NCBI GenBank assembly: GCA_022824835.1
Contig: JAJDZB010000029.1
Location: 39,999 to 103,998, forward strand
From: Candidatus Poribacteria bacterium
GTDB lineage: Bacteria; Poribacteria; WGA-4E; WGA-3G
Reading direction: 5' to 3'
Length of the DNA stretch: 64,000 nt
A program made the translations under genes and the position numbers. Positions within the stretch are counted from its first letter, which is position 1. Each line of letters opens with the position of its first letter. Under the pieces are notes generated by a model. It worked only from the letters and a program-made list of their open reading frames with translations. It made no database searches and was not told the origin of the DNA. Shown here in pieces: positions 6,724-48,292 of this stretch.

Positions 6724-6983
6724 TTTCCCATCTTCAAAAAGTTCAGATGGATGAATTAAACCCCCAAATACAGAGTAACTTCACCGTGGGTTGCTCAGTG
6801 TTCAGAGAGTCCATCACTATCACCTGTTTTGTTTTCATAGTCGCCGCTGCAAGGTGGTTGGGTGAGTATCCTCCCAAATGTTTGAATAGTTCATCATAAT
6901 GTGTCATGGTAAGTATTATACACTATAATTCAGGAAAATATCAAGGAGATGCGGGTATGTAAAGTTTTTGTCACTCTATTGGT

Positions 6984-7357
6984 CAGAATCGCGGATTACG
7001 CGGAAGGGGTTTCTTGTGCATTTTATGTTTACTTTCACAAGTTGGCGCGGATCTGACTGTTAAGGGGCAAAATATTTACGCGTCCGTTTTTGTACATAGT
7101 ACTCCGCTGGTGTGCAGCCCGTTGACAATCCTATTTCTATCGATATATTGCTCCGCTGGAGCATGGGTTCAGCGATCCTTCTTTCTGTCAATAAACATTC
7201 AATACCTTCACCAAGAAGATACATTCTGTTAGATTGTGCCTTTCTTTGTAGCACATTCTTTCAGAATGTACTTCTTTGTAACTGATCAATTTCATATAAT
7301 GATCCAGAAAATCCTTCCGTGCAAGCTATGTTAACTGGCACGTAATCCGCGATTCAG
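6984..7357. repeat. Pair of 17-bp inverted repeats flanking about 340 bp inside a large non-coding region.
   Basis: cagaatcgcggattacg at 6984-7000 and its near-perfect reverse complement cgtaatccgcgattcag at 7341-7357, with one mismatch. Confidence 0.4.
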
Positions 7358-7564
7358 ACAGATAGAGTGATAAGATATTTACACAACCCAGTTCATCTCA
7401 TCAAGGGATCCTTATCCTTCGAGTTGTCTGAACCTGGATTTACAGGATTAGAGGATTTTCAAGATAAGAGACATCTTCTCGTATTATATTCTACTGAGAA
7501 TGTGAAACCATTTGCGGTTCATTTCATGAAGTGAGTCTTATCCTGAAAATCCTGGTTTAGACAA

Positions 7565-9445
7565 TTATTTCAATATTAACATTTTCCGTGATGCAGTGAA
7601 ATCGCCAGCTTTAAGCGTATAGAAGAAAACACCACTTGCGACAGATTCACCTACTGCGTTTTTGCCATCCCAATATGCAGCACGACTTCTGTTGTGATAA
7701 ACACCTGCAACTTGGTGACCTAACGCCAATGTTCGAATCAATTGCCCATCTGCAGCATAGATGGAGACACTCACTTCTGCAGACTTTGCTAACTGATACG
7801 GTATCCACGTCTCCGGATTAAACGGGTTCGGGTAGTTTGCTAACAGTGCTGTCTCTTGCGGAACGAGGGATGCCAAAAGACGTTCCAAGTTCGCTATACC
7901 TTGTCGGAACACCAAAGAACCGTCGTTTTCAAGCTGCGCAAGTTCTAACCATTTTTTGACGAGTGCTGGGTCAACACCATCTAACTTCACAACACTTTCA
8001 GGTGCAGCAGCATTTGTTGTCTCCCCAAAATGTCCAGCGACAAGCACCAAGTCTAAGATATTGATACTCCCATCAGCATTGACATCTGCGCGTGGGACGG
8101 CTGTGATCGATCCGCCGATGTTTTGTCCCACAAGCACTAAATCCAATATGTTGACGCTACCGTCCTCATTCACATCCCATGCAGGATACGCGGGCTTTGG
8201 CGTAATCATGAGTTCCGCGGGTTCAAGATGTGGTCTCGTAAGCATGCCTTCACTATCGCTGAAGAGGATCTCTGTGATTTTCAAGGTAGTAACTTCTTCA
8301 CTGATTATATCAAACGTAAGTGTCACAAGTGTGCCATCCCCGTTGGTTTCTCCGACAAGGGACGTTGCTGCAACCGTCACAGTGTTTCCTACGATAATCG
8401 GTTGTATTATGTTTGGGTCTGCTGGTAGGAAATCAGCGTTGGCACTTGAAACATAACGGAGCGCGGATTCATCAAACTGTACAGTTGCCTGATAGCCTGA
8501 GATATTCTCTCCACCGGTAACGTTCAGGTTCAGCATAAGTTGCTCGCCGACAACCGGGGATGCCGAGGGGGCGGGAGATAAACTGACCGTAGCATCTACA
8601 AGTGGTATTATGTCTGGTGCTATGCTCAATGCAATACCAACGGGTGTTTGTAATCCTGAGACAATTGTTTCAACGTTTGATCCATCAAGATTCGCACGCT
8701 GAATTGCACCTGGAGAACCACCATGGTCGGGAGAAGTCCAATACATCTTACTATTTTGCAAATCTAATGTGATTCCTCCTGGAAATTGCAAACCGTCTAC
8801 AATGTCCTGTAGGTTTGAACCGTCAAAATTTGCACGTTGGATTTTCCCAGAATTAGGAATTATTTGACTCGTCGTAGATTCATATTGCCAATGGTTTGCC
8901 CAATACATGTGCTGATTCTCAATATCCAAAGAGAGGTAAGCAAGAAAACCCGATACGTTCGCTAAGTCCTCAACGTCAGTTCCATCAAGGTTTGCACGCC
9001 TAATTTTGTTAACGTCAGTCCAATACATCTTACCACCTGACAGATCTAAAGCGAGACCACGCGGAGTCACTAAAGTACTAACAAGCGTTTCAATGTTTGT
9101 ACCGTCCAAATTTGATCTCTGAATCGTATTCTGTCCTCTCTGAGATTCATTCCAATGGATCCAGTACATTTTTCGTGACGATAGGTCTAAAGCCAACGCC
9201 TCTTTAATGCTATCATCACCAGTAACAAGTATTTCAATATTTGATCCGTCAAGGTTTGCACGTCTGATGGAATTATTTCCATTCCAGTCATTCCAATACA
9301 TCTTTCCATTAGAAACATCTAAGGAAATTCCTACTGGTCTACTTAACCCAGTAATAATGTCTTGCACATTTGAACCATCAAGATGAGCGCGTTGGACTTT
9401 TCCAGATAGAAAGTCTGTCCAATACACATACTCAGGTTCTTCCAT
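7565..9445 (-). CDS. Secreted YWTD (LDL-receptor class B) beta-propeller protein with two dockerin-type repeats and a T9SS-type C-terminal sorting domain (FlgD-Ig/Por_Secre_tail-like).
   Basis: It has repeated '...MYW(T/A)D...IRRANLDGSN...' YWTD blades. The dockerin repeats are 'DVNEDGSVNILDLVLVGQ' and 'DVNADGSINILDLVLVAGHFG'. The C-terminus 'NYPNPFNPETWIPYQL...VSIYAADGQLIRTL...AYWDG...ASGVFFYTLKAGDF...KMLILK' matches the T9SS type-A CTD consensus. Confidence 0.6.
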   Translation of the reverse strand: MEEPEYVYWTDFLSGKVQRAHLDGSNVQDIITGLSRPVGISLDVSNGKMYWNDWNGNNSIRRANLDGSNIEILVTGDDSIKEALALDLSSRKMYWIHWNESQRGQNTIQRSNLDGTNIETLVSTLVTPRGLALDLSGGKMYWTDVNKIRRANLDGTDVEDLANVSGFLAYLSLDIENQHMYWANHWQYESTTSQIIPNSGKIQRANFDGSNLQDIVDGLQFPGGITLDLQNSKMYWTSPDHGGSPGAIQRANLDGSNVETIVSGLQTPVGIALSIAPDIIPLVDATVSLSPAPSASPVVGEQLMLNLNVTGGENISGYQATVQFDESALRYVSSANADFLPADPNIIQPIIVGNTVTVAATSLVGETNGDGTLVTLTFDIISEEVTTLKITEILFSDSEGMLTRPHLEPAELMITPKPAYPAWDVNEDGSVNILDLVLVGQNIGGSITAVPRADVNADGSINILDLVLVAGHFGETTNAAAPESVVKLDGVDPALVKKWLELAQLENDGSLVFRQGIANLERLLASLVPQETALLANYPNPFNPETWIPYQLAKSAEVSVSIYAADGQLIRTLALGHQVAGVYHNRSRAAYWDGKNAVGESVASGVFFYTLKAGDFTASRKMLILK

Positions 9446-13380: not shown

Positions 13381-13504
13381 ACTATTTTTCTCTAGCACAC
13401 TGCTCCTCCTTATGTACATAATACACATTTGGAGGGATTAAACTGAAATACAAAATATAGGCACAATTTCAGCACGTGGCACCTAAATAGATAGACTGTA
13501 CTGT

Positions 13505-13554
13505 TGCACAAACTTTTAGTTTGTGCAGTAGTGTACGCAAACTAAAAGTTTGCG
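13505..13554. promoter_or_regulatory. Two adjacent operator-like palindromes (GCAAACT-N5-AGTTTGC) upstream of the porin-like gene.
   Basis: tgcacaaacttttagtttgtgca at 13505-13527 and cgcaaactaaaagtttgcg at 13536-13554. They lie about 100 bp upstream of the gene at 12028..13380 (-). Confidence 0.3.
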
Positions 13555-13687
13555 CTACAACTGTGTGCAAGTAATTATATATTTCACCATAACAGAAGAA
13601 TAGCAGTTGTGTACACCCCTCCCTTGTACAAAACTGCAAGCCAACATATTATGTATGATAGCACATGTTCTATATAATGTCAAATAA

Positions 13688-16759: not shown

Positions 16760-16995
16760 AACGATGCTCTCCTTCCACTAATAGTTTATTGATTCAGATG
16801 TCCATCCCATTCAACTGAGATTGTAGCATAAAATGACAGAATACACAAGCGCGGATTCCAATTTAATAGTAGTAGGCACTTTCCGAGTGCCGTCTCTTAA
16901 AAATGAGTCTCTTCCGAAAACGCTACACACCCTTCCACTTGTTCCTACTTAACTGATAGTCTACAGCAAAAAAAGATAGTTAAATCTTAACATCC

Positions 16996-18162
16996 TTAAA
17001 TTTCGGACCGCAGGATTTCCGCTGCTTCATGTATCACTTGTAGTTTTTTAGATGCAATCTCAGCAGAATTTACGGGTCGGTCAGCAAATGTACCGAATCC
17101 GCAATCTGGATTTAGATAAATCTGTTCAGGTTCGCGATGTTTTAGTAAGTTGCGAACTTTCCCTAAGACAAAGTCAACAGGCTCGACCTCAGTCGTACGT
17201 GGATCAACCACACCTAATCCGATCTCTTTATCTGGTGGAAGTTCACCAAGAACATCAATACTCCCAGCACGTTCAGTTGCATATTCTAATACCAACTGAT
17301 TGACATGCATCTGACTGAAATACGGAATAAGTAGGTCGTAAGAGCCGCGAAGGAGCACATCCTCTTCTTGACTCCAATTGCCACGACAGACATGAAGAGC
17401 GGTTTTCATTTTACCATCAACACCCTCAACAACGCGATTTATCAGTTCTACAGCAAAATTGAGTTCATCCTCCGGAGTGCTCTTCTCTGAAAGTGCAGCA
17501 CACATAAACGAATGTGTTTCGTGGGGACCCGTAAATGCAACCTCGGTAAGCACAGGTTCATCGAACTGCACAAATTCACAACCTGCATCCTGTAAATCAA
17601 ACAACTCTTGCCTCAGCACTGATACGACATCATCTCCTAATGATTCTTTATCGGGATAGAAGTCGTAGGACAACTTCTTAACCCACATTGAACGGGTTAA
17701 CAGATAGGGACCGGGTAGCGTAACTTTTATAGGTTTCGTTGTATGCTCTTTTAAAAACAGGTAGTCTTGCAATACAAGTGTTGAGGAACGACTTATTTTG
17801 CCATCAACGACAGGATTCTTTAAGGCGAAAGCGGGGACATCTAATGCATTGAGAAGTTGTTCAAAAGCAGCTTTATCTTCTACGTAGTCCAACATCTCAG
17901 CAAGCGTCATCAACCGGATACCGTCCATACATCCAGTAATGAAGGAATAGAAGTTATCACGTCGTTGTTCTCCATCGCTTACGATGTCAACACCATCAGC
18001 TTCTTGTGATTTGAGGCTTTCAATCACAGCCTCGTCAGCAATTGCGTTAAATTCAGCATCCGTGACGCGTCCCTTCTGTTTATCTCTTAATGCCCGTGAA
18101 ACTGCTTTCGAACGCGGCATACTACCGACTACAGTCACGGGAAATGCGGGTAAATTATACAA
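16996..18162 (-). CDS. Methyltransferase of the cobalamin-independent methionine synthase family (MetE C-terminal domain-like, Meth_synt_2).
   Basis: 'VVGSMPR', 'KVTLPGPYLL', the zinc-ligand motifs 'ALHVCRGNW' and 'NPDCGFG', and its length of 388 aa. Confidence 0.55.
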   Translation of the reverse strand: MYNLPAFPVTVVGSMPRSKAVSRALRDKQKGRVTDAEFNAIADEAVIESLKSQEADGVDIVSDGEQRRDNFYSFITGCMDGIRLMTLAEMLDYVEDKAAFEQLLNALDVPAFALKNPVVDGKISRSSTLVLQDYLFLKEHTTKPIKVTLPGPYLLTRSMWVKKLSYDFYPDKESLGDDVVSVLRQELFDLQDAGCEFVQFDEPVLTEVAFTGPHETHSFMCAALSEKSTPEDELNFAVELINRVVEGVDGKMKTALHVCRGNWSQEEDVLLRGSYDLLIPYFSQMHVNQLVLEYATERAGSIDVLGELPPDKEIGLGVVDPRTTEVEPVDFVLGKVRNLLKHREPEQIYLNPDCGFGTFADRPVNSAEIASKKLQVIHEAAEILRSEI

Positions 18163-18332
18163 TGATCTGTTCTCCTTATCTGCTTATATAGACAAAGTAT
18201 TAGAGGTTGTCCCTCCATATATTATTTATAAAATATAAGTTACTACTTTGGTGGTGAAGTCTTATCTGATATTGTATCAGATATATGTCAAAAAAATCAA
18301 CTCTGAATAAAGGTTCTCTGTACAGGAAAAAA

Positions 18333-18470
18333 CTTGATACTGCTGTAGCACATTCATCCTTGATTGTGCTTCTTTCTCCAACCTTCATCGTCCATTACCC
18401 CTTTTCCGTACCCATTCATCTTGATATTGCTGTAGCACATTCATCCTTGATTGTGCTTCTTTCTCCAAAC
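18333..18470. repeat. Two direct copies of a 50-bp repeat, period 87 bp, in the 5' leader of the MetE-like gene.
   Basis: cttgata(c/t)tgctgtagcacattcatccttgattgtgcttctttctccaa(a)c at 18333-18382 and 18420-18470. The reverse complement contains AAGGATGAATGTGCTAC (SD-ATG-like). The same core recurs at 48293-48385 and partially at 7244-7262. Confidence 0.6.
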
Positions 18471-18504
18471 ACCTTATGCGTCAATTTAACGTGATCTTGA
18501 TAAT

Positions 18505-18545
18505 AGGATCTGGTTCGGTTAGGAAACCGAACCTACCGGCCTGGG
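18505..18545. repeat. REP-like hairpin of the GTAGG-head family, with its left arm degenerate.
   Basis: ggttcggtt-agga-aaccgaacctaccgg is the same element as the perfect 36-nt palindrome at 50333-50368. Confidence 0.45.
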
Positions 18546-18926
18546 AAAATCTGATTTATCAAACTCACGTTCAATTTAAGGATATTCTCTCTGGTTGGGT
18601 AGGCTATATAAGACCGATTTTAGTCCCATACCTTTTGCATCGCTGGGACTTGGGTTTTCCGGGATTCGTGTTCTATATATACCTTCCGCACCGATGATGC
18701 TGATATGTGATTTTCCAAAGCCTCAGAGAGGTGAAAGGTGTATAGTCCGCATAGATTCCAACCAATAGCAAGCCCCAGAGGGGCGAAAGGTGTATCAACG
18801 CACTAACGTTTTTCACTAAATTGACACCTAAAGTTTATTTACAGAAATTATGTAATGATACCATTGCAAGTTTTCTCTTTATATGGTATCATTTATGAAA
18901 CAAACAAAAAATGTCAAGAGAAGTGA

Positions 18927-19625
18927 ATGCACAAACCACGTACAGTTGATGGAATACTCAGAAAAATAGAAGAAAAAGCAAATACTGGCGAATATCTATA
19001 CCGTGGTGAACCGGAACACTTTCAGGATGTCCCGTATTGTGGGAAGGTTTCCTCTAACTTCTATCGTATTTTCCTTGATGATGAAAACTTTGATATAGAA
19101 GCGGAACACTTTAATATAGAAGAACTCCAAACAGCAGTGTTGAGTATATCTGATCAATTTTCACGAAAACCAATCAGTGATCTTGAACGCTTGTCTGAAA
19201 TTCAACATTATGGAGGTAAAACCAACCTCATTGATTTCACGAAGGATTATCTTATTGCACTTTTTATGGGATGTGATGGGTCTCCTGACGAGGATGGTCG
19301 GATTATCTTGCAAGAAAAGGAATTGATGGAACCCTATATTGAAGAACCTTACGAACCAATAAATCGCGTCATTGCCCAAAAAAGTGTTTTCGTTCGGCAT
19401 CCAGATGGCTTTATTCAACCAGACGAAGAAAACATCATCAATATTAAATCGGACCTCAAAAAGTCAATGTTAGAGCATCTACGATATTCCCACGATATTT
19501 CTTTTGAAACAATCTACAACGATATACATGGCTTTGTAAAAGATCAAAAAAACCACATGCAATTCTACAAGACGATTTATGAAGGTATACTCCAAAAGCA
19601 GAAAGGAGATACAGGATATGGCTAA
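18927..19625 (+). CDS. FRG-domain protein.
   Basis: 'LYRGEPEHFQDVPYCGKV' (the YRGQ/FRG motif) and 'IQHYGGKTNLIDFTKDYLIALFMGC' (the QHYG...LDWT box) define PF08867. Confidence 0.5.
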   Translation: MHKPRTVDGILRKIEEKANTGEYLYRGEPEHFQDVPYCGKVSSNFYRIFLDDENFDIEAEHFNIEELQTAVLSISDQFSRKPISDLERLSEIQHYGGKTNLIDFTKDYLIALFMGCDGSPDEDGRIILQEKELMEPYIEEPYEPINRVIAQKSVFVRHPDGFIQPDEENIINIKSDLKKSMLEHLRYSHDISFETIYNDIHGFVKDQKNHMQFYKTIYEGILQKQKGDTGYG

Positions 19626-21309
19626 TGAATCTAAGATGGCACACTATGAAGCAGCTGTCAAACACTTTAGCGAAGCCATTCGTATGAGACCTGGCTTTGC
19701 TATGACCTATATCTACCGTGGTGAGGTTTACCATAAAATGGGGAAGTTTGATCTTGCAATTGATGACTATACCCAAGCAATTTTCTGGACACGCAAACCT
19801 GCAAGGGCTTATCATAGTCGTGGCATGGCACATGGTGCTAAAGGTGATTTTGACAAGGCAATTGAAGACTTCACGAAAGCAATCCAACATGAACCTGATT
19901 ATGCAGAGGCATACTTTCATCGTGGTCACGCGTATGTTAATAAAAACGAGTTTGACATCGCTATTGAAGATTGTGACAAGGCAATACAACTTAATCCTGA
20001 TATTGCTGATGCCTATTTAATTCGTGGTAATGCCTATAGTGGAAAAGAAGGTTTTGATTTTGCCATTATGGACTATAGCAAGGCGATACGACTTAAACCA
20101 GATTACGTTCTTGCCTATATCGTTCGCGGCAACGCTTATAACAGCAAACAGGGGTATAATCTGGCAATTGCAGATTATACAAAGGCACTAAACCTGAATC
20201 CGAATTTTGTTGATGCTTATGTTGTTCGCGGACATGCTCATGTCCTACGAGGCGATTTTGAGTCTGCTATTGAGGACTGTGAGAAAGTCATAGAATTTGT
20301 GCCTGATGTTGCCGGACCTTATATCACACGTGCAACTGTATATAGCCTTCAGGAGGATTTTGATTCTGCTATTGCAGACTGCACCAGTGCATTAGAACGG
20401 AATCCGAAGGCTGCTGATGCATACCTGATTCGTGGAATGGCTTATAGTAACAAGGAGAAGCCTGACTTAGCTATTGCAGATTTTTCAGAAGCGATAGAAT
20501 GGCAACCCAATTACCCTAATGCATACTATGAACGTGGCAACTCATACAGCAATATGGGTGAGTTTGACAAAGCAATTGAAGACTATACGAAGGTGATAGG
20601 ACATAATCCGTATCACATTGAATGCTATATAAATCGTGGTTTTGCATATAGCAGAAAACGACAGTTTGATAGAGCATTTGGAGACTATAATACGGTCATC
20701 CAAATTCAACCTGATTATGTTCCAGCTTATGTCGATCGTGGTATCACTCTTGCGGTCAAAGGTGACTTAAACAATGCAATTGCAGATTTCACACGAGCGT
20801 TAAAACTCAATCCACTGTTAGACAAATTGTATTATAATCGAGGAAAAGTCTATACCAGTCAATTGAACTATGATATGGCTATCGCAGATTTTAATACAGC
20901 GATACAGCTTAACCCTGATAATGCACAAGTGTATTATAGTCGTGCAAAAGTCTGGTTACATCAGCAAGAATGGGAAAAAGCAAAATCGGATTTTAAAAAT
21001 GCTAAGAAGATGCAATTAGACATTTCAGGTCAATTTCATAGGGACTATCCTAAAATACTTGATTTTGAAAAGAAAATTGGTGCTAAATTACCTGATGATA
21101 TCGCTAATATGTTGATGCTACAGGATGGAAAAATTCAAATGCAACTTATGGATGAAAGTTTATTCCTGTCTTCAAAAGGAATTGATTCTTCCACTCTTGA
21201 AAAAAAAGATGTCATAAGAGCGATACATAAAAAACGAGCCCAAACTCTTTCTGATAAATTAAATAATTCCAATAGCATAACCTCAACTCATAGCGCAATA
21301 GCGAGTTAA
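19618..21309 (+). CDS. TPR-repeat protein with about 14 TPR units.
   Basis: The A-x2-Y/A-x-RG-x-AY-x3-G-x-(F/Y)D-x-AI-xD(Y/F)-x2-AI-x(L/F)-xP unit repeats 14 times. The start ATG at 19618 overlaps the FRG stop (ATGGCTAA), with AGGAGAtacagg as SD. Confidence 0.7.
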   Translation: MANESKMAHYEAAVKHFSEAIRMRPGFAMTYIYRGEVYHKMGKFDLAIDDYTQAIFWTRKPARAYHSRGMAHGAKGDFDKAIEDFTKAIQHEPDYAEAYFHRGHAYVNKNEFDIAIEDCDKAIQLNPDIADAYLIRGNAYSGKEGFDFAIMDYSKAIRLKPDYVLAYIVRGNAYNSKQGYNLAIADYTKALNLNPNFVDAYVVRGHAHVLRGDFESAIEDCEKVIEFVPDVAGPYITRATVYSLQEDFDSAIADCTSALERNPKAADAYLIRGMAYSNKEKPDLAIADFSEAIEWQPNYPNAYYERGNSYSNMGEFDKAIEDYTKVIGHNPYHIECYINRGFAYSRKRQFDRAFGDYNTVIQIQPDYVPAYVDRGITLAVKGDLNNAIADFTRALKLNPLLDKLYYNRGKVYTSQLNYDMAIADFNTAIQLNPDNAQVYYSRAKVWLHQQEWEKAKSDFKNAKKMQLDISGQFHRDYPKILDFEKKIGAKLPDDIANMLMLQDGKIQMQLMDESLFLSSKGIDSSTLEKKDVIRAIHKKRAQTLSDKLNNSNSITSTHSAIAS

Positions 21310-21349
21310 AGTGTCAAATAAGACGTTTCCTGAATAGAAGATCGTCTCT

Positions 21350-21517
21350 ATGTTCTTTCTAAACAAACCCACCCAAAACAACACCGGATGGTATGTATCA
21401 GAAGAACCCAGAACACGCCTTGGCAAGGGAATTATAGGTCAGATTAAGTATTCTCCAGATGGCACTCAACTTGCTATCGGGAGTTCCATTGGGATTTCTC
21501 CTTCTTCAATTGCTTGA
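21350..21517 (+). pseudogene. Remnant of a WD40-family paralog (N-terminal about 55 codons only).
   Basis: It translates to MFFLNKPTQNNTGWYVSEEPRTRLGKGIIGQIKYSPDGTQLAIGSSIGI.... This is near-identical in pattern to residues about 35-70 of the WD40 genes at 28361, 30506 and 32499 (RIGKGEIGAIKYSPNGTQLAVATTIGIWLYD), but it stops after 55 codons. Confidence 0.45.
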
Positions 21518-21614
21518 AGTAACGCTTCTGCATCTTCCATTGTCACCTGGTGAGATTTATTAATAGCTTCCAAGATTTGTTTAGGTTGTCCCTTCGGTTC
21601 TAAGTTCGGTTCCC

Positions 21615-22355
21615 TTACACCACGCGCAGCTCAACATCAATATCAACATCACGAGTCAGAGTATTCGTCACTGGGGAAGCAGCAAGGGTTTCCTCCCATA
21701 ACGCCTCCAGAATCTCATCGTCTGCATCAGATGCGACATAGATCGTTCCACGCACTGCATTAAAACCGCTATGTCCATCCTGTTCCGTTCCGAGAAAAAC
21801 GAAGATGTTATCAATCTGTCCACTCAATGAGATCTCCAACTCATCTATTTCAATCTTCTGCTGAGATGCGCGAATCTGAAAACCCATTGCCAAACACGCA
21901 CCGAGTGCACCTAAGACATACTCAACAGCACTCGGAGCAGCATCGCGCACATCAAAACTCGCAGGTTGACCTACCGACCACGAATGATTTCTACAGAAAA
22001 CCTTCGCTTGTAGACCACCATCCCAATGGATACGGGTCTGCCATTTATAATCTCGCGCTTGAGCATAAGCAGCATCAGCATCCTGTTCTGCTTCACCGCG
22101 TTGAACGAAATACTTGTTGTGTGATGGTGCAGGTCTCCAGCCAAGATAGGGATTCTCTGTCATACGACACCACGCAGGGAGATCCTCCTTGACACTAATC
22201 TCTGTACTGCGAATCTCCAACACATCACCATCTGGCACTTTTTCCATCGATTTCCGAATCAGAAGCAGTAGACCGGAACCACAATCAAGGTTTCCACCTT
22301 CACAGATATGTAGTGTCTGTAGACTTTCAGGTGCTTGTAAATCTTCTTCTCGCAT
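21615..22355 (-). CDS. Fusion of a TusA-like (SirA/YedF/YeeD fold) domain and an OsmC/Ohr domain.
   Basis: The N-terminus 'ICEGGNLDCGSGLLLLIRKSMEKV' is TusA-like. The C-terminus 'PSAVEYVLGALGACLAMGFQIRA...' is the OsmC core. Confidence 0.45.
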   Translation of the reverse strand: MREEDLQAPESLQTLHICEGGNLDCGSGLLLLIRKSMEKVPDGDVLEIRSTEISVKEDLPAWCRMTENPYLGWRPAPSHNKYFVQRGEAEQDADAAYAQARDYKWQTRIHWDGGLQAKVFCRNHSWSVGQPASFDVRDAAPSAVEYVLGALGACLAMGFQIRASQQKIEIDELEISLSGQIDNIFVFLGTEQDGHSGFNAVRGTIYVASDADDEILEALWEETLAASPVTNTLTRDVDIDVELRVV

Positions 22356-22667
22356 TGATATTAATACCCTGGGATTGTAATTGAATTGTAAGATGTGAAT
22401 CCTAAGTGTTGATATATATTAGAATGGACTGTAGTGAGTTTCTTGGCAGGACTGATGAATTATATCTTTTTTAAAGTGTATCTTTTAGGAATATGAATGA
22501 GTATCCCTCCTTTGGAAAAAAGTTGGCAGTGTATCAACCATGCACAATTTACTTTCGTAAGGAAACCTTTTCCATAATGGGAGGGAGACTCTAAGTTCTG
22601 GTTTTGGATTCAGCCGAACCCTTATGAAGATTCCTGCCATGCATAGCAGAAACTCCTTTTTCAGTTG

Positions 22668-23027
22668 TCAATAGGTTAGACTTGATCCGCCCGTAATTAA
22701 AAACTCAACAGCCTTAGCCCCCCCAACAATGACTGCATTCTCTACAAGGTTTTCTTCATCAAGGTTCCGCTTTTTGAAGCATGGTGAACAGACCCAGATT
22801 GTTCCGCCAACCTCAGCAAAGTCTGTCATGAGTTGTTTCAACGGTGCGAAACCTTCTTCGTGTATATCATCTGCATACCCATCTTGTGATAAATGCACAC
22901 CTTCTGTGCTAAGAAAAACAACGGTTTCAATACCAGAGGCTACAGAAGCATTTGCAACAACAAAACCGACAGTTGCTTTGTCGGTGTTATCTTTAGCGTG
23001 CGTAATGCTTATCATGAGTTTAGACAT
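22668..23027 (-). CDS. DsrE/DsrF-like sulfur-relay family protein.
   Basis: It is a 119-aa YchN-fold protein with 'ITHAKDNTDKATVGFVVANAS...VVFLSTEGVHL...VCSPC'. Confidence 0.55.
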   Translation of the reverse strand: MSKLMISITHAKDNTDKATVGFVVANASVASGIETVVFLSTEGVHLSQDGYADDIHEEGFAPLKQLMTDFAEVGGTIWVCSPCFKKRNLDEENLVENAVIVGGAKAVEFLITGGSSLTY

Positions 23028-23326
23028 TAAGTTCTATCTCCTTTTTTAATATAAAAATAGGCATTGTCTTCACCGCAACAGTCTGCGAGAAGGTCATTGC
23101 CTATCATGTTACACCATGCTGCTATATCCACAGGTGCACCGGGGTCAACAGCATGGACTTGTGCGATCTGTCCTGATTCAAGAGTCCTCATCGCTTTCAA
23201 TAATGCCACGATAAGATCGCCACATCCGAGTTCTCCAAAATCAAAAACAGCATCTGGCTCAATATTTGGTAGTTGGTTCATAACTTTCATGGTATAAAGA
23301 ATACCATGTAAGTCTTCAGACGTCAA
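23027..23326 (-). CDS. TusA-like sulfurtransferase-family small protein.
   Basis: 'VFDFGELGCGDLIVALLKAMRTL' parallels the TusA 'LDxRGLxCPxPLLxxKKAL' motif. Its stop overlaps the DsrE-like start. Confidence 0.5.
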   Translation of the reverse strand: MTSEDLHGILYTMKVMNQLPNIEPDAVFDFGELGCGDLIVALLKAMRTLESGQIAQVHAVDPGAPVDIAAWCNMIGNDLLADCCGEDNAYFYIKKGDRT

Positions 23327-23364
23327 GGCATTTTCTTATAACTTAAGCTCCAACAAGACACAGA

Positions 23365-24234
23365 TTAACGTTCAAGCCAACCCGGTAGCTTAATCTCACC
23401 AGATAACTTCCAGGCTGTCAGGTAAAGTGAAGCTGTCCACTGAACGCCTTCCCGTGAGAGACTATTCGTAAATTCAAGCAGTTCTTCAGATGGGTTTTGC
23501 AGGTCTTGATAATCCTGAACAAGATGATATACACGATCTACTAAGTTATTCCCAATTTTCATCTGTTCAACAATAGCTGGCATTAATTCCTTGACAGGTT
23601 TAACCTCATGTCCTTCGGAAAGTTTGATCGGGTCAAGTTTCATGACTTCAATTGATGCGTCAACCTTTTCATGGATTCCTGCATGTAACTTTGAACCGTC
23701 TTCTTGGACAATTCCGTCAAAGTGCACTGTTAAGTGCAAAGGTTGACACATATCCTGTGCATAATGTGCCAAGAATCCTGCGTAAACATAACACTTGTAT
23801 TGAATAATTGGATTATCTGGCCATTTTCGGTATTCTGCAAAGGCAAAAGCGAGTCGTTCTGTATATTCAGCTACTGCATAAGGTAAAAGTCCAACCTTTC
23901 TTGGCTCAAGTTCCATCTTGGCACAGAGTTTCAGAAATTCATCTCGATTCTCAGGCACTGGATTATCTTTGATAAGCTCAAGATCAAAGTAGTGTTCACC
24001 ATACTCAGCAGCCCGTGCATGGGGCACATAACGTTCTTTTGACAGATCGGGATCATAAGAACAGTGTGCTATCATTTTCTCGGCAGTTGCAGAACGGAAG
24101 AATTCTGGCATCTCATCTGGGAGTGTTTTAATAGTAGCTTGTGTAAGTATGTCGTGTCCACCACCCCACCATGCCCAAGCGGGTGTGGATAGAACAAGTA
24201 AGATTAACACGAATATATTTCGTAGACGTTTCAT
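23365..24234 (-). CDS. S1/P1 nuclease family protein, secreted.
   Basis: It has a signal peptide, then 'AWAWWGGGHDILTQATIKTL' and 'HYAQDMCQPLHL' (zinc-ligand motifs of S1/P1 nucleases). Confidence 0.65.
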   Translation of the reverse strand: MKRLRNIFVLILLVLSTPAWAWWGGGHDILTQATIKTLPDEMPEFFRSATAEKMIAHCSYDPDLSKERYVPHARAAEYGEHYFDLELIKDNPVPENRDEFLKLCAKMELEPRKVGLLPYAVAEYTERLAFAFAEYRKWPDNPIIQYKCYVYAGFLAHYAQDMCQPLHLTVHFDGIVQEDGSKLHAGIHEKVDASIEVMKLDPIKLSEGHEVKPVKELMPAIVEQMKIGNNLVDRVYHLVQDYQDLQNPSEELLEFTNSLSREGVQWTASLYLTAWKLSGEIKLPGWLER

Positions 24235-24266
24235 AGTTCTCCTTTTCTCTTGATAAAAGTAAACGA

Positions 24267-25238
24267 TCAGTCTGCAGCAAGATATTCACTGGATTCGTCA
24301 TCGTGCCATTGGAGTTGCAGTTCTGCTGTTTCGTGAGGTTTAAAAGGTATTGCTATGGAGTCAACATCAGGTCCGATAATCTCAATATTATCAAGATTAG
24401 CAGTACCGTATTCCAAATCGTTAGCATAATTGAGAAGTCCGATATCCATCGGTTCAAATCCCATAGCCTTTGATGTAACCGCATCAGCTGCGAAGACATC
24501 CGCACTTGCAACAGCGATACCGAGTTGTACGGAATTGGTGCCTCCTGGACCGTTTCCTTGTAAACCCAATGTGCCATCAATGATAGCGATATCCGGTCTC
24601 AAGAAGCGCGAGAGACGCAATAGGTTGATATTTATCGTCTGTGCTTCTCGCGGCAACATTCGGTCCCCATGACTTAGATATCCATGCACTTTAATACGGT
24701 CAGCCTTATGAATAGTACCCATAATCATGTTCTTCATTGCAAGTGTAACAACGCATGCATCATGTGTCTTGGCGATTGCAACAGAAATCGTGCATGGACA
24801 GTCGAGAACTGTCTTCGGCATTCGTACTGTTTCTGATTCCCTTCCAGAGAGAAATACTTCTGTTTCAACCCATTCAGTCTCTTCATGTAGGTCAAGGAGT
24901 CTAATAGGTATATCGTATTCCACTTGCAGGGCATCGTAACCGAAGATTTGAAATGCTTCTCCAGAGAAGGATTCATTTGCCCCTTCAGCGATAATTACCT
25001 CTTTAGGTGGTTGTGGTGTGCTCATCAAGAAGTCCAATGCCCCACGCATTGCATCTACATGTGAAGAAGCGAGTTGATTAGTGCTGGATAAAAAGTTCGG
25101 TTTTAACAGCACCTGTTCACGGACTCTTGGCGTGACCTCTTCCCGTATATTGTTCAATGCCTCATAGACATTAGAACGACGTCTGCCAGTCTTGGCAAGA
25201 CCAACTTTTGTACCAACTTTTATAACTGTATCAGACAT
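24267..25238 (-). CDS. DUF362 domain protein.
   Basis: 'LLKPNFLSS', 'ISVAIAKTHDACVVTLAMKNMIMG' and 'DGTLGLQGNGPGGTN' match the DUF362 pattern. Confidence 0.5.
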   Translation of the reverse strand: MSDTVIKVGTKVGLAKTGRRRSNVYEALNNIREEVTPRVREQVLLKPNFLSSTNQLASSHVDAMRGALDFLMSTPQPPKEVIIAEGANESFSGEAFQIFGYDALQVEYDIPIRLLDLHEETEWVETEVFLSGRESETVRMPKTVLDCPCTISVAIAKTHDACVVTLAMKNMIMGTIHKADRIKVHGYLSHGDRMLPREAQTININLLRLSRFLRPDIAIIDGTLGLQGNGPGGTNSVQLGIAVASADVFAADAVTSKAMGFEPMDIGLLNYANDLEYGTANLDNIEIIGPDVDSIAIPFKPHETAELQLQWHDDESSEYLAAD

Positions 25239-25281
25239 TTAGTTCCCCCTATCTTATGGATGTATCAGGTCTGGTTTTAGA

Positions 25282-26178
25282 TTATTCTCTAATTTCACTT
25301 TCAGTTAATATCGGACGTAAGAAACCGTGATGTTTCTCCAAGAGATCTATAGCCTCTCTCTTCTCAATCCCTTTCGTCAACATAACAATCGCTACTTTAG
25401 CATTTCCATCAGATTCCTTCAACGTTGCTTGTGCGGTGGTATCATCAACATTCGTAACGGTTTGTATAATTCGGATACTCCGTTCAACTAATTTTGTATT
25501 TGACGCGTTCACATCCACCATCAAATTATCATAGACTTTCCCAATCTTTATCATTGAAATTGTCGTAAGCATGTTGAGTATTAGTTTCGTTACTGTTCCC
25601 GCTTTTAATCGGGTTGAACCCGTAATAATCTCTGGTCCGACAATTGGTGTAATGAAATGGTCAATGTATGCATTTAGTTCTGTTTTTGGTGGAACACAAC
25701 AGAGGAAAATCGTCTTTGAACCGATGCTGTGTGCTTCCTTTAGTGCCCCTAAGACGTACGGTGTTCTTCCACTGCTTGCTATCCCAACGATTACGTCTTC
25801 AGGAGTCAGAGCATATTCCCTTATCGTCTGTGCACCACTTTCAGGTTTATCCTCTTCCCCCTCAACCGATTTTCGTAAAGCTATATCACCACCTGCTATA
25901 ATACCTTGCACCAGCTCTGGTTCTGTACTAAAAGTCGGTGGACATTCAGAGGCGTCCAATACACCGAGTCTCCCACTTGTTCCAGCACCGATGTAAAACA
26001 GTCTTCCTCCCTGAGAAAACGCATCAACGATCATTTCTACCGCAAACGAGATTGCATCTGATTGACTGGCAACAGCATCTACAGCCTTTCTGTCTTCCTC
26101 ATGGAATATGTTTACTATTTCTGGTATCGACTTTAAATCAATGTCTATTGAGTTAGGATTTCGTTGTTCTGTAATCAC
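25282..26178 (-). CDS. murQ: N-acetylmuramic acid 6-phosphate etherase.
   Basis: It has a SIS domain with 'GGRLFYIGAGTSGRLGVLDASECPPTF', is about 298 aa long, and is adjacent to a sugar kinase. Confidence 0.75.
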   Translation of the reverse strand: MITEQRNPNSIDIDLKSIPEIVNIFHEEDRKAVDAVASQSDAISFAVEMIVDAFSQGGRLFYIGAGTSGRLGVLDASECPPTFSTEPELVQGIIAGGDIALRKSVEGEEDKPESGAQTIREYALTPEDVIVGIASSGRTPYVLGALKEAHSIGSKTIFLCCVPPKTELNAYIDHFITPIVGPEIITGSTRLKAGTVTKLILNMLTTISMIKIGKVYDNLMVDVNASNTKLVERSIRIIQTVTNVDDTTAQATLKESDGNAKVAIVMLTKGIEKREAIDLLEKHHGFLRPILTESEIRE

Positions 26179-26221
26179 TGTTTAAAATTTATATTGAATC
26201 AGGCCTGGGATAAAAAATGAA

Positions 26222-27130
26222 TTATTGAAGTGTCCTTGCCAACAACACTGCACCGTAAACTGGTTCGTGTTTAGGCAGCGTTGCAGTCGCGCCTATTATG
26301 TTTTTCTCAATCCATTGACTCAGTTTATCTGCCAATAGGGGTTGATGTATCAGATTACCACCACTCAATAGTATATCAAAAGTATCAGTGAAGTTCAGCA
26401 TCCTGACAACAGTTTCTATTGCAAGCATGAGTTCTTCTGCAGCTGAATCTATTATTGTTTCTGCTTTTTTATCACCTATTTCAACTGCCTTAAACACGAC
26501 TTTAGATAGTTCTGCAATTTCGTCTCTATTTGCCGCATGTATCCATGGAATTATATCACTTGGCTTGTTCAAGGCAAGCTTATTTAGCATTAAACGGGTT
26601 AATTCAGTCGGCGGTTCACGTTTGTCTGTTGAGCGAGCAACTGCTTGAAGTCCTTTAATACCGATTTCATATCCACTGCCTTCATCTCCAAGCAGATACC
26701 CCCAACCCCCTGCACGTGTCTCTTGACCAAATTGATCAATACCATAGACAATAGAACCCGTACCAGAAATTACGATGACACCCGCCTGTTTACCAGTTCC
26801 ACCAACAAATGCGATATGTGCATCGTGCGTTAGAATACGCTTTTTACTTATTCCAATTTCATCACAGAGCTGTCCGATGATTTTTCGATCATCTTCACGT
26901 CCTAAACCCGCCATGCCTAAACAGAATCTGATTGAATCTAATTCTGTCTTGTCAACGTTTTCTGTTAGATTGCGGATAATCTCTACTAATACCTTCTTTG
27001 TCTGTTCTGTTCCAACAACATGATAATTTGATGGACCGGTTTGCGTTTTGGCTACCTCTTCACCTTTGTTTGTCGTTAACATGCCAACGGTCTTTGTTCC
27101 GCCGCCATCTATACCAATAATGTAATCCAT
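26222..27130 (-). CDS. BadF/BadG/BcrA/BcrD-type ATPase (N-acetylglucosamine/N-acetylmuramic acid kinase-like, MurK-like).
   Basis: 'MDYIIGIDGGGTKTVGML' is the ASKHA N-terminal motif. Being co-oriented with murQ suggests cell-wall sugar recycling. The start is taken at M23 of the ORF. Confidence 0.6.
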   Translation of the reverse strand: MDYIIGIDGGGTKTVGMLTTNKGEEVAKTQTGPSNYHVVGTEQTKKVLVEIIRNLTENVDKTELDSIRFCLGMAGLGREDDRKIIGQLCDEIGISKKRILTHDAHIAFVGGTGKQAGVIVISGTGSIVYGIDQFGQETRAGGWGYLLGDEGSGYEIGIKGLQAVARSTDKREPPTELTRLMLNKLALNKPSDIIPWIHAANRDEIAELSKVVFKAVEIGDKKAETIIDSAAEELMLAIETVVRMLNFTDTFDILLSGGNLIHQPLLADKLSQWIEKNIIGATATLPKHEPVYGAVLLARTLQ

Positions 27131-27333
27131 TTTAGTTACGGTACACGGAGAGTGTCTACTACTATTAAGAATAATGATTGTCTCAAAGAACGGCACACGG
27201 AGAGTGCCTACTACTTTAAAGACAGTGAAATTTCATTGACAACTGATACATAATCCATTATAGTTAATTTATCACGATCCATCCGAAAATGCAATAGATT
27301 TAACAGGTGCAATTCTTTAACAGGTGCAAGGCC

Positions 27334-28296
27334 ATGATTAAATTAAGACATTACGTTCTCACGCTCACACTTATGAGTTTTCTTTTCATCGGTTGTGCAC
27401 AAGACTCAAAACAAATTACATGGGAAAAAGTTAACAGCGGGACCAGCGCGCACCTTTACGGCGTGAGTTTCTTGGATGGAAAGAATGTCTGGGCAGTTGG
27501 AAGTGATGGCACCGTTCTATCATCTAAGGACGGTGGGAAGAACTGGAGTGGAAACGATGAAAAGTCCATTGCCACGTATACGTTGACACATGTCAATTTT
27601 ACCACTCCCATAAATGGTTGGATTGTGGGCAGAGGAAATATACATTATACCGGTAGCGCGGGTAATTCGTGGAAGATACAACATCAGATACGATCCACAA
27701 GTAATATAACCCCCGGTATCTTAGACCTGTATTTTATCAATACAACAGAAGGTTGGGCTGTCGGAGGAGTTGACGGAATCGGTATGTCAACGATACTCTA
27801 TACGCAAAATGGTGGTGGATCATGGGAAAAAGTCAACAACCCTTCAGATAGACATCTCTGGGGAGTACATGCTTTTGAATCATCCGTTTGGGTTGTCGGA
27901 GAAAAGGGAGAAATCTTACATTCACCAAATGGTGGGAAACAGTGGACTCGTCAGCTCAGCAATGCAGAACAACCGTTATTCGCTGTACATTTCCCACATC
28001 CCTCTAAAGGCTGGATAGTTGGATCCGATGGTCTGATTTTGCATACTACGGATAAAGGAATAAACTGGACGCGACAAACGAACCCGATGAAACAGAGTCT
28101 AAGAGATGTTCATTTTCAAGACGAAGAACGGGGATGGGCAGTCGGTGAGGAAGGCGTCATACTTCATACGCAAGATGGCGGAAAAACGTGGACAAACTAT
28201 CCTTCACCGACAACAAAAAACTTGCAGGATATCCATTTCAACGGGAATATCGGATGGATCGTCGGTGAGAAGGGTGTTATCTTACGAACAAAATAA
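27334..28296 (+). CDS. Ycf48-like/BNR (Asp-box) beta-propeller lipoprotein.
   Basis: It has a lipoprotein signal (LMSFLFIGC) and repeated 'S.DGGK.W' Asp-box motifs (SKDGGKNWS, TQNGGGSWE, SPNGGKQWT, TTDKGINWT, TQDGGKTWT). Confidence 0.6.
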   Translation: MIKLRHYVLTLTLMSFLFIGCAQDSKQITWEKVNSGTSAHLYGVSFLDGKNVWAVGSDGTVLSSKDGGKNWSGNDEKSIATYTLTHVNFTTPINGWIVGRGNIHYTGSAGNSWKIQHQIRSTSNITPGILDLYFINTTEGWAVGGVDGIGMSTILYTQNGGGSWEKVNNPSDRHLWGVHAFESSVWVVGEKGEILHSPNGGKQWTRQLSNAEQPLFAVHFPHPSKGWIVGSDGLILHTTDKGINWTRQTNPMKQSLRDVHFQDEERGWAVGEEGVILHTQDGGKTWTNYPSPTTKNLQDIHFNGNIGWIVGEKGVILRTK

Positions 28297-28360: not shown

Positions 28361-30505
28361 ATGAAAAAGTTACTATTTCTGAATATCTTTTCTCTAATCC
28401 TCCTTACAACATACTACCATTCTAACGTTTCGGCTGAGAACCATACGCGTTGGGATTTACCAGATGGTGCAATTGCACGTATTGGAAAGGGTGAAATTGG
28501 TGCAATAAAGTACTCACCTAATGGCACGCAACTCGCGGTCGCCACTACCATCGGTATATGGCTATATGACGCTAAAACATATCAAGAATTAGACCTGTTA
28601 AAGGAGGCAGATGTTTCCCCTTATGACGAAAGAGGAATTGCTTTCAGTCCAGATGGTAACACCCTCGCGACTTCTAATGGTAGTTTTGGAGGTATTAAAC
28701 TATGGGATATTGCAAATGGCACAATAAAGAAAACACTATTGGACGGGATTATACCTAAGGGTGCTGAGAATGTGTTGTTCAGCCCTGATGGTACAACGCT
28801 TGCAACTTATAGATACAAGGAGCTATTTTTATGGGATGTTGTTACTGGTAAAAACAGGACTCTCGGCGGAAATACAGATTATGTTGGAGGATTCGCGTTA
28901 AGTCCTGATGGAAAGATACTCGCGAGTGGTAGCAGGGATCAGACTATCATTCTGTGGGATGTTGATACAGGTTCAATTAAACATACACTTAAGGGACATA
29001 CGGATTCTGTTACCAGTGTTTCTTTTAGTCCCGACGGTAAAACGCTTGCAAGCGGTAGTAGTGATAACGCAATCAGATTTTGGGATATTGAAACAGGCAC
29101 ACATGTGAAAACTTTCAAAGAAGCGGAGGTTAATGTTACACAAATATCATTTAGTCCGAATGGACAATTCATTTTAAGTTGGGGGAAGGGTAATTCCAAA
29201 ATCCTCTTGTGGGATGTCAATACTGGAGAATACAAGCAGATTGATGATAATAAGAAGCGACGCATGGGTGTCTGTTTCAATCCTGACGGTAATATGATCG
29301 CTGCAGCACATGAATACCATACTATCGATTTTTTTAATTTAACTACTGGAGAACACAAAAAAAGAATAGTTGGAAATAACTATAAAGATCTTACGTTTTT
29401 TATGGGTAAATTTGCTGATCTTACGCTAAGTCCTGATGGTACAAAGTTCGTAAGTATGAATATTGACAACTCTATTAACCTATGTGATATTACGTCTGGA
29501 CAATGCAAATTGCTAATACCACATACACCAGACCATAGTATCAGAAGTCTGAATAGATTTCTGTTTAGCTCAGATAGTAACCTGTTTGCGGGGATGTCTT
29601 CGGACGGTTTTATAGGGTTGTGGGATGCAAATACAGGTAATGAACGACACACTTCCAAAAGAATACAATTATTTGAAAAGAATCATACGGCATTAGATCA
29701 TAGTCCTCTGTATGCACCTGTATTCGGTTTTGCTTTTAGTCCAGATAGTCAGATACTCGCAAGTGCAAGTTCAAAACATTCAATCCATCTATTAGATACT
29801 ACAACGGGGAATATTAGACACTCACTCCAAGGTCATACTGCAAGGGTCGGGAGTCTCTCTTTTAGTTCCAATGGACAAACACTTGTGAGTGGAAGTCATG
29901 ACGGTACGATACGCTTTTGGAATACAACCACCGGAAAACTAAATAAAACCATAACAAACCGAATATTAACAAAGCAACAGACAATGGAACCCATCGCTAT
30001 CTCTACAATAGCATTAAATCCAGAAGGGGATAGAGTCGCAAGCGGCAACCAAGATGGAACTATCGTTATGTGGAATGTTGTTACCGGAGAAAAACAACTA
30101 ACTTTTACAGGACACGCTGATGCAATCTCAAAGATCTTTTTCAGTCCAGATGGACGTAAAGTCGTCAGCACAAGTAAAGACGGATCAGTTCGCCTATGGG
30201 ATGTCGCAACTGGACAGCAAGAATACGCCATCGCTGGTTACAGACTAACGGATTGGAAAGTATTTCTATATGAAAATGGAGTGTCACTGGCAAGCGAGAC
30301 GAAACTGGTGCTAGGTGCTGCTGGAAAACCTTATGTTAACTTATGGGATTTAAACACTAAAAAACGCATAAAAATACTGACAGGACACAATGATAGAGTC
30401 ACGAGCATCGATTTCAGTGACGATGGTAAGACGCTTATCAGCGGTAGCAGAGATGGAACTGTCCTTGTGTGGGATATCCCGAGCATCATTCAGGAGGTCG
30501 AATAA
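28361..30505 (+). CDS. WD40-repeat protein (about 14 blades, two propellers) with an N-terminal signal/anchor.
   Basis: It has repeated '...SPDGKTLASGSxDxTIxLWDVxTG' WD40 units and an N-terminal hydrophobic segment. Confidence 0.8.
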   Translation: MKKLLFLNIFSLILLTTYYHSNVSAENHTRWDLPDGAIARIGKGEIGAIKYSPNGTQLAVATTIGIWLYDAKTYQELDLLKEADVSPYDERGIAFSPDGNTLATSNGSFGGIKLWDIANGTIKKTLLDGIIPKGAENVLFSPDGTTLATYRYKELFLWDVVTGKNRTLGGNTDYVGGFALSPDGKILASGSRDQTIILWDVDTGSIKHTLKGHTDSVTSVSFSPDGKTLASGSSDNAIRFWDIETGTHVKTFKEAEVNVTQISFSPNGQFILSWGKGNSKILLWDVNTGEYKQIDDNKKRRMGVCFNPDGNMIAAAHEYHTIDFFNLTTGEHKKRIVGNNYKDLTFFMGKFADLTLSPDGTKFVSMNIDNSINLCDITSGQCKLLIPHTPDHSIRSLNRFLFSSDSNLFAGMSSDGFIGLWDANTGNERHTSKRIQLFEKNHTALDHSPLYAPVFGFAFSPDSQILASASSKHSIHLLDTTTGNIRHSLQGHTARVGSLSFSSNGQTLVSGSHDGTIRFWNTTTGKLNKTITNRILTKQQTMEPIAISTIALNPEGDRVASGNQDGTIVMWNVVTGEKQLTFTGHADAISKIFFSPDGRKVVSTSKDGSVRLWDVATGQQEYAIAGYRLTDWKVFLYENGVSLASETKLVLGAAGKPYVNLWDLNTKKRIKILTGHNDRVTSIDFSDDGKTLISGSRDGTVLVWDIPSIIQEVE

Positions 30506-32458: not shown

Positions 32459-32498
32459 GGCAGATACTAAGAGAAGTCTATCAAGGAAAAGACATAAA

Positions 32499-41296: not shown

Positions 41297-41441
41297 GAGT
41301 CGGGAATCGGCCAGTTTTATATATAGTTTCCCTCCCACCATAAGCAGCCCAACGGTAGGAGTTTAAAAGGGTCGGGAATCGGAGTTCCCTCCTACCATTA
41401 GCAGCCTATCGGTAGGAACGATCTCCGAATCGCGACATTTA
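41297..41441. repeat. Two tandem REP-like nested hairpin units.
   Basis: gtcgggaatcgg...ccctcc(c/t)acc-N13-cggtaggag/aacg...ccgaatcgcgac. Each unit has cctacc/ggtagg arms. Confidence 0.45.
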
Positions 41442-41660
41442 CCCGAACGGTTAGAATGGACTATCTACTAATTTTTCTGTCATTACCATGTGGAAATGAA
41501 ATAGAGAACGGCACAATCTAACAGAATGTGCTACAATAACTGCAATAAAGGGGTATTATCAATTAGAAATGGCAAAAAGTAGAAATGGTATAAGGCACTA
41601 CCTATCATCAAGAAACCGTATATCCAATACCCGACTTGTGTGCATTCCCATAACTAAAGA

Positions 41661-48288: not shown

Positions 48289-48292
48289 TGCT

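Follow-up and report, generated by a model that had tools for sequence, protein, structure and literature searches.

The repeated sequence found ahead of a MetE-like gene and an adenosine-deaminase-like gene in the window, a 64,000-nucleotide stretch of a Candidatus Poribacteria genome, is a new family of a known kind: a REP-like extragenic hairpin organised in modular arrays. By a modest balance of probability, its unit is a repetitive extragenic palindrome of the REP type and belongs to a high-copy, most likely selfish family. We read the unit in this way because the same genomes hold other GTAG-hairpin families that flank RAYT-like Y1 transposase genes, and because a linker is common to those repeats and to the present one. 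The 25-mer GTAGCACATTCATCCTTGATTGTGC has four exact matches on the + strand of the window (starting at 18345, 18432, 48293 and 48324), where none is expected by chance and none of 100 dinucleotide-preserving shuffles contained a match. The hairpin repeat is real and stands far above chance expectation.

The sense strand is taken here as the strand that reads GCACAATCAAGGATGAATGTGCTAC, which is the minus strand at both the 18xxx and 48xxx arrays. On this strand the unit consists of GCACA, an A·A mismatch, TC, a loop, GA and TGTGC, which together make an imperfect palindrome, and then CTAC. The inverted repeat (A)GCACA...TGTGC(T), which is absent from the earlier note on this DNA, is the basis of a hairpin of about 22 nt with a stem of 5+2 bp and a loop of 5-6 nt, and the CTAC of the purine-rich sense strand is a GTAG ahead of the hairpin on the other strand. 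The unit therefore has two of the features by which REP sequences are recognised, namely a short imperfect palindrome able to form a hairpin and a GT(A/G)G tetranucleotide, here GTAG, at the 5' foot of the palindrome. Folded as DNA it reaches -6.5 to -7.4 kcal/mol (z = -4.3 to -5.4 relative to shuffled sequence), and the hairpin is predicted for either strand in both DNA and RNA folds; its stability is well above that of shuffled sequence.

Two main loop types share this stem. Type A (GCACAATC-AAGGAT-GAATGTGC-TAC) carries what had been described as an 'SD-ATG' core, and type B (GCACAATC-TAACA-GAATGTGC-TAC) has neither a Shine-Dalgarno-like stretch nor an ATG. The statement that each copy holds AAGGA followed by ATG is correct for every type A unit but fails for type B, which makes up about 40% of the units. 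Among 196 type A units at least 190 keep CTAC, and among 140 type B units at least 136 do so; conservation of the asymmetric CTAC and of the linker equals that of the palindromic stem. Covariation within the stem is not significant (50 distinct variants, one compensatory pair, with 53 of 500 shuffles reaching the observed score) because the repeat family hardly varies. The features of the window are as follows, where loci surveyed in related genomes are denoted by L and a number.

18457-18489, minus strand: left module of array 1, TTAAATTGACGCATAAGGTGTTTGGAG and then an AAAGAA linker (repeated 20-mer).
18432-18456, minus strand: 5'-most type A unit of array 1, GCACAATC-AAGGAT-GAATGTGC-TAC (exact 25-mer; RNA and DNA folds).
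18370-18431, minus strand: two degenerate purine-rich sub-repeats between the hairpins, ..AGCAATATCAAGATGAATGGGTACGG / AAAAGGGGTAATGGACGATGAAGGTTGGAG.. (sequence reading).
18345-18369, minus strand: the other type A unit of array 1, 87 nt away from that at 18432 (exact 25-mer).
18314-18344, minus strand: 3' tail of array 1, with which the repeated sequence ends, AGCAGTATCAAGTTTTTTCCTG... (BLAST depth; same tail in L007 and L023).
18271-18300, minus strand: promoter-like site, TTGATT, 18 nt, TACAAT, with TG before the -10 (extended -10), conserved in the ortholog L008.
16996-18162, minus strand: MetE-like gene with a Meth_synt_2 domain (Pfam E = 4.9e-33).
48378-48406, minus strand: left module of array 2, in which the TAAATTGACGC motif is present in inverted form as GCGTGAATTTAG (homology with the left parts of L030 and L064).
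48355-48379, minus strand: degenerate unit on the 5' side of array 2, 18/25 identity (sequence; Tandem Repeats Finder).
48324-48348, minus strand: type A unit of array 2 (exact 25-mer; Tandem Repeats Finder).
48293-48317, minus strand: type A unit of array 2, at 31 nt from that at 48324 (exact 25-mer; Tandem Repeats Finder).
48254-48292, minus strand: right module of array 2 (AGCAATGGTTTCGGGAATCGTTAATATTGACGCCTATGG), including the gene-start-like ATG 48288 (repeated sequence reaches 48254).
47239-48207, minus strand: adenosine-deaminase-like gene (Pfam A_deaminase E = 5.3e-35).
41511-41534, plus strand: solitary type B unit, antisense to both flanking genes (exact match; absent from the earlier note).
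7218-7271, minus strand: two degenerate units, of which one is of the TAACA-loop type and has a damaged arm and the other is the variant GTACATTC-TGAAA-GAATGTGC-TAC (sequence; inside the composite repeat 6955-7392).

The two copies with an 87-bp period that had been placed at 18333-18470 are borne out as exact 25-mers at 18345 and 18432, although they read AAAGAAGCACA..., rather than AAAGAGGCACA... as had been stated. Three 31-bp copies had been claimed at 48293-48385; two of them are exact and 31 nt apart, but the third is degenerate, and Tandem Repeats Finder describes 48292-48375 as 2.7 copies of a 31-nt period with 92% matches. The partial copy assigned to 7244-7262 also exists, but consists of two degenerate units, one at 7218-7240 (TAACA type) and one at 7248-7271 (GTAGCACATTC-TTTCA-GAATGTAC on the + strand). 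The repeat form of about 90 nt, as in array 1, comprises one hairpin and two degenerate purine-rich relatives, and the same architecture recurs in L064, L013 and L030. BLAST depth across 18314-18489 rises to 248, and the 20-mer TTAAATTGACGCATAAGGTG, with up to three mismatches, occurs 28 times in 26 loci; a right module related to that of array 2 (CATGGTCTTGGGAATCGCTAAATTGA) is found at about 20 other loci, all without a deaminase. Between units lie repeated linkers or degenerate units and no unique spacers, in agreement with the earlier judgement that the repeat is not CRISPR.

A search with a 20-nt core against one genome per prokaryotic species gave more than 104 stretches, and among the matches listed all lie in eight Candidatus Poribacteria genomes. 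The core has no match in IMG/VR viral contigs and, as far as was seen, the family is restricted to Candidatus Poribacteria, which are sponge symbionts. Of the representatives, JAJEJA01 is the closest to the window (~94% identical over 18183-27461), followed by CBDBFT01 (~91%). In the 780 kb of fetched loci together with the window (~840 kb) we counted 355 units, of which 174 match type A exactly and 104 match type B exactly; the uniformity of type B is no sampling artefact because the search query did not contain it. Rfam returned only chance snoRNA and miRNA matches (the window at gathering thresholds, both loci at E up to 10). None of the literature searched connects Poribacteria with REP, RAYT or CsrA in this way, and the one match to 'RAYT' proved to be an author name, Raytselis.

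The arrays hold 1 to 13 units in the same orientation, with types A and B mixed. Unit spacing peaks at 30-35 nt and 84-93 nt, which correspond to the two periods seen in the window, and spacings of 87-90 nt are the commonest. Successive units are arranged in the same orientation, rather than as the inverted REP doublet that defines a REPIN, and inverted unit pairs are only occasional (L004, L033, L047 and L068). Conservation is far higher in the hairpin core than in its flanks, and the core sits in at least three distinct module contexts. In L030 and L064 the arrays extend over 700-900 nt, with GGA-rich repeats interspersed with hairpins. The orientation of the arrays shows no significant link to genic GC skew (p = 0.23) or to position on the closed 5.9-Mb chromosome, where the best two-breakpoint split accounts for 24 of 32 (permutation p = 0.18).

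The long arrays of L030 (6200-7500, plus strand) and L064 (2400-3700, minus strand) contain very long purine-rich stretches (GGAAGGTTGGAAGGATGGAAGAGGG...) between hairpins, with strong strand asymmetry and many GGA and G-run motifs. A sigma-54-like TGGCAC-N5-TTGCA in L064 was dismissed, as it overlaps a terminal repeat and is missing in the sister element L030.

The arrays are strictly extragenic as well as high in copy number, as is typical of REP sequences. When gene positions are approximated by a long-ORF heuristic (ORFs of at least 150 aa, no gene caller), none of the 116 arrays lies inside such an ORF, even though these ORFs cover 73% of the bases (P ~5e-67). Roughly one array in four is located between convergent genes or right after a stop codon.

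An indication of how such repeats may be spread comes from the other GTAG-hairpin families of these genomes. The window holds at least five of them (13494-13560, 16862-16900, 27138-27225, 41300-41430 and 51519-51628, in addition to the core of an element at 18484-18573), and in related genomes such families flank Y1 (IS200-like, PF01797) transposase genes that are RAYT-like. This arrangement, seen at L088, L105-L111, L113 and L118-L120, consists of direct copies upstream and inverted or direct copies downstream of the gene, often as head-to-tail arrays with purine-rich linkers. Flanking of this type is the known arrangement of REP-associated tyrosine transposases, and one of the Y1 homologs bears the JGI name 'REP element-mobilizing transposase RayT'. 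Most of the Y1 homologs listed were seen on a single contig. The linker CTACAAAGAA(AGAG) that follows the hairpin of the 18xxx/48xxx type recurs as the linker in the repeat at the flanks of the Y1_Tnp genes in L105 and L108, and L108 comes from the genome with the most arrays. The GCACA/TGTGC hairpin itself flanks none of the 12 Y1_Tnp genes examined, whose flanking repeats, where present (one gene had none upstream), belong to other GTAG-hairpin families, and no Y1_Tnp gene adjoins this hairpin in 780 kb of hairpin-bearing tiles. We infer that a RAYT mobilises the GCACA/TGTGC hairpin.

In the REP-type explanation, the single-stranded hairpin with its GTAG would be the substrate that a RAYT-like Y1 (HUH) transposase recognises and cleaves in trans. 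Units would be added beside existing units, or arrays would be altered by slippage or unequal recombination, and the outcome would be same-orientation arrays with both loop types mixed and with periods of about 31 and 90 nt. Such arrays would persist at harmless sites, downstream of genes and upstream of promoters. The AAGGATG stretch is simply the loop of one unit type, and its resemblance to a Shine-Dalgarno sequence with an ATG is incidental. The head-to-tail arrangement speaks against the REP-type explanation, in that classical REP/BIME and REPIN sequences are mostly inverted pairs. It might be that Poribacteria RAYTs build head-to-tail REP arrays of a kind not described so far, inserting beside the CTAC of an existing unit.

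Like the REP, BIME and REPIN sequences and their RAYTs (TnpA-REP, Y1 HUH) in E. coli and Pseudomonas, the Poribacteria units are short imperfect palindromes with a GTAG foot; they are extragenic, high in copy number, lineage-specific in sequence and clustered in composite mosaics, and the genomes that contain them also have genes for RAYT-like Y1 transposases with other GTAG-hairpin repeats at their flanks. Unlike those sequences, the Poribacteria units run head-to-tail at 31 or ~90 nt with purine-rich linkers instead of forming inverted pairs, and they have a short stem, two loop variants on one stem and no cognate RAYT among the genes examined. The BOX elements of Streptococcus pneumoniae (boxA-boxB(n)-boxC) resemble the arrays in placing tandem units, variable in number, between a left and a right module, in being intergenic and strain-variable in copy number, and in the inverted ends of some copies. 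However, BOX is unrelated in sequence and belongs to another phylum, and the Poribacteria repeat differs from it in its internal GTAG-hairpin and in that many arrays have no end modules.

The arrays change quickly between related genomes. In the orthologous array of L008, whose flanks are ~95% identical, the units are A-B-B-A-B (31-nt tandem) compared with A-x-x-A in the window. One array, located after a stop codon in L101, has no counterpart at this site in either the window or L008, where the deletions are imprecise, and none of the presence/absence differences compared is a clean insertion or excision with target duplication. The fast turnover of the arrays, combined with a constant unit sequence, implies either ongoing homogenisation and spread or a strong constraint on the core. 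The near-perfect identity of the core across species beside diverging flanks could equally reflect a host function under selection.

The arrays could alternatively be internal modules of MITE- or BOX-like non-autonomous elements that end in GGGTGTGTAAAGTTTTTG and are moved by a DDE-type transposase, with the hairpins as passengers. Inverted termini of 21 nt do enclose the long arrays of L064 and L030. The GGGTGTGTAAAGTTTTTG terminus is found 121 times in ~840 kb, where it heads several different internal modules, and it is present within 500 nt on both sides of 12 of 104 arrays and on one side of a further 30. In the window, the composite repeat 6955-7392 has inverted ends of ~50 nt (GGGTrTGTAAA...GAATCGCGGATTACG) around its two degenerate hairpin units. 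As a general account we nevertheless consider this unlikely. The remaining 62 of the 104 arrays, arrays 1 and 2 included, have no GGGTGTGTAAAGTTTTTG within 500 nt, the hairpin sits in several unrelated module contexts, and no transposase with GGGTGTGTAAAGTTTTTG ends was identified. Nor do the copies each show the terminal inverted repeats and target-site duplication of a MITE, with no target duplication at arrays 1 and 2. Correia/NEMIS elements of Neisseria and similar MITEs are likewise small, non-autonomous intergenic repeats near promoters, and some Poribacteria arrays have inverted termini as well; in contrast to them, the Poribacteria repeat has no observed target-site duplication and no internal promoter, and mostly no inverted termini. 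Some hairpin copies may still move as cargo of another element, because 42 of the 104 arrays lie within 500 nt of the terminal repeat GGGTGTGTAAAGTTTTTG.

The position of the arrays relative to promoters raises the possibility that a dimeric regulator or a nucleoid-associated protein binds the palindrome as duplex DNA, and that the arrays are regulatory or architectural. A strong promoter follows within 300 nt downstream in 36 of 112 arrays, often within 100 nt, and these downstream promoters are located in unique DNA past the end of the repeat. The GCACA-N12-TGTGC motif is extremely conserved across species, and placement without regard to orientation would suit a role at the level of DNA. 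We regard this explanation as distinctly unlikely, however, since no promoter is expected at the quarter of arrays that lie between convergent genes or after stops, arrays of up to 13 units with fast turnover are unlike operators, and the conservation of the asymmetric CTAC and linker equals that of the palindrome.

The orientation of the arrays and the promoters around them argue against a role at the level of RNA. Relative to their flanking genes the arrays are unbiased (22, 20, 20 and 18 over the four configurations, among 116 arrays surveyed), and of the strong sigma-70-like promoters within 300 nt, 56 point away from the arrays and only 15 into them, 5 in the sense and 10 in the antisense direction. 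That the arrays are transcribed as strand-specific tandem-hairpin RNAs, which titrate or recruit an RNA-binding protein across hundreds of loci, is very unlikely in our estimate. In a more specific form, the type A hairpin would be an RNA site for a protein of the CsrA/RsmA type and the transcribed arrays would be CsrB/RsmZ-like sponges or cis-regulatory sites. The hairpin predicted for the purine-rich strand presents UCAAGGAUGA with GGA in the loop, and the consensus of CsrA/RsmE is reportedly (A/U)CANGGANG(U/A), which the type A hairpin fits strikingly well; arrays such as L030 and L064, moreover, hold dozens of GGA motifs on the same strand. Type B, by contrast, has an equal stem and CTAC but a GGA-free UAACA loop, and is freely mixed with type A. 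Hundreds of dispersed copies per genome in random orientation, with inward promoters scarce and none of their own, are unlike a sponge RNA gene, and neither a match in Rfam nor a strand preference in the stem (15 G·U versus 9 A·C) lends support. A tblastn search for csrA, fliW and hfq found none in the window and the 780 kb of loci, which is a weak test, as they are a small part of any genome. The CsrA/RsmA explanation therefore has very little probability.

It is extremely improbable that the repeat is, as the earlier note had suggested, a repeated translation-initiation or decoy element (Shine-Dalgarno and ATG) in the 5' leaders of downstream genes: AAGGA does stand 3 nt ahead of ATG in each type A unit and arrays 1 and 2 of the window are upstream of genes on the same strand, but the family has no preference of orientation or position for gene starts, type B has neither element, the 31-nt period is no multiple of three, and in the predicted fold AAGGAUG is held within the hairpin, with AGGA as the loop and UG(A) paired in the stem. 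A leader, translation or Shine-Dalgarno decoy role is not supported, because the arrays are intergenic with unbiased orientation and strong promoters mostly point away from them. Copies are found on either strand relative to genes, a pattern that the earlier note had itself set against a leader-specific function, and in the window the type B unit at 41511-41534 is antisense to both of its neighbours, ORFs 39709-40863(-) and 41661-42587(-). Another possibility raised at the time, that of a small mobile repeat, is consistent with the family-wide evidence.

The two genes that had suggested a leader function can be read without it. At the MetE-like gene, the start codon lies 183 nt downstream of the closest hairpin unit and is a TTG with AAGGAG 9 nt ahead of it. 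The array ends ~20-30 nt upstream of the promoter-like site 18300-18271, which on its sequence is a putative promoter; since this site is conserved in the ortholog and lies downstream of array 1, the array is probably upstream of the MetE-like promoter and outside the leader. At the adenosine-deaminase-like gene, the ORF 47239-48336 carries the N-terminal extension MNVLQRGTIKDECATA..., which had rightly been called a spurious Met-initiated product of the repeat, and ATG 48288 with its first codons sits inside sequence that is repeated at many other loci. The true start is probably ATG 48207 or 48186, rather than 48288 or 48336; an alignment with PDB sequences was not decisive on this point.

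The repeat is not surprising in kind, and its main use is in annotation. The AAGGATG loop creates false start codons and ORFs, such as the 16-codon extension of the adenosine-deaminase-like gene, ATG 48288 and ORFs of ~100 aa that consist wholly of repeats, and gene callers applied to Poribacteria MAGs should mask the arrays. The arrays are also likely break points in short-read assemblies, and, as their unit content differs between genomes that are ~94% identical, they could serve as strain markers. With many GTAG-hairpin families, several RAYT-like lineages and head-to-tail REP arrays, Poribacteria offer a rich and unexplored case of REP/RAYT co-evolution.

Several other repeats lie in the window. 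Two of them, at 18484-18573 (minus strand) and 49365-49534, are small hairpin elements that have (A)ACGTGAGTTTGATAA as their inverted ends. The first of these, of 90 nt, has TTAAATTGA(A/C)CG at both flanks and looks like a recent insertion, because the orthologous L008 locus has no such element and the same flank stands on both sides. A 174-aa Y1 transposase in L113 is flanked by the hairpin that forms the core of this element, CCGGTAG+GGTTCGGTT-TCCT-AACCGAACC, which occurs there in at least 12 tandem copies. A second repeat is present in three copies at 18672-18834 (for example CACCTTTCGCCCCTCTGGGGC and CGGTGCGGAAGGTATATATAGAAC). In L088 and L105-L107 this repeat stands at the flanks of a conserved 157-aa RAYT-like Y1 transposase; its stem covaries between genomes, with GCACC...GGTGC in some and GCCCC...GGGGC in others (L088, L105-L107). 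The sites 13494-13560 and 51519-51628 are inverted GTAG-hairpin doublets and thus REPIN-like, with the sequences GTAGCGCAAAC-TTTTA-GTTTGCG...GCACAAAC-TAAAA-GTTTGTGC and GTAGGTCGGGTAGAGCGAAGCGAAACCCGAC with its inverted copy. The families at 16862-16900, 27138-27225 and 41300-41430 have the sequences TAGTAGTAGGCACTCTCCGTGTGCCG and GTAGGAGGGAACTCCGATTCCCGAC / GATCTCCGAATCGCGA, and the GTAGGAGGGAACTCCGATTCCCGAC / GATCTCCGAATCGCGA family flanks Y1 transposase genes in L105, L108, L118 and L119.

Among the remaining features, 21450-21610 is the remnant of a small antitoxin-like gene, which is intact in L101 (~6830-7700) and adjoins a PIN-like toxin gene there, while the window and L008 have differing deletions. 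Three adjoining WD40-repeat ORFs (714, 650 and 694 aa) and a 576-aa TPR protein are encoded within 28361-34583 and 19579-21309, and the DNA repeats of the WD40 ORFs make up most of the repeat finder's output; eukaryote-like repeat proteins of this kind (WD40, TPR) are typical of sponge symbionts. Within the ORF 38768-39367, GATGATGGCATGACC forms a perfect tandem repeat with a 15-nt unit and 2.5 copies (39275-39312).
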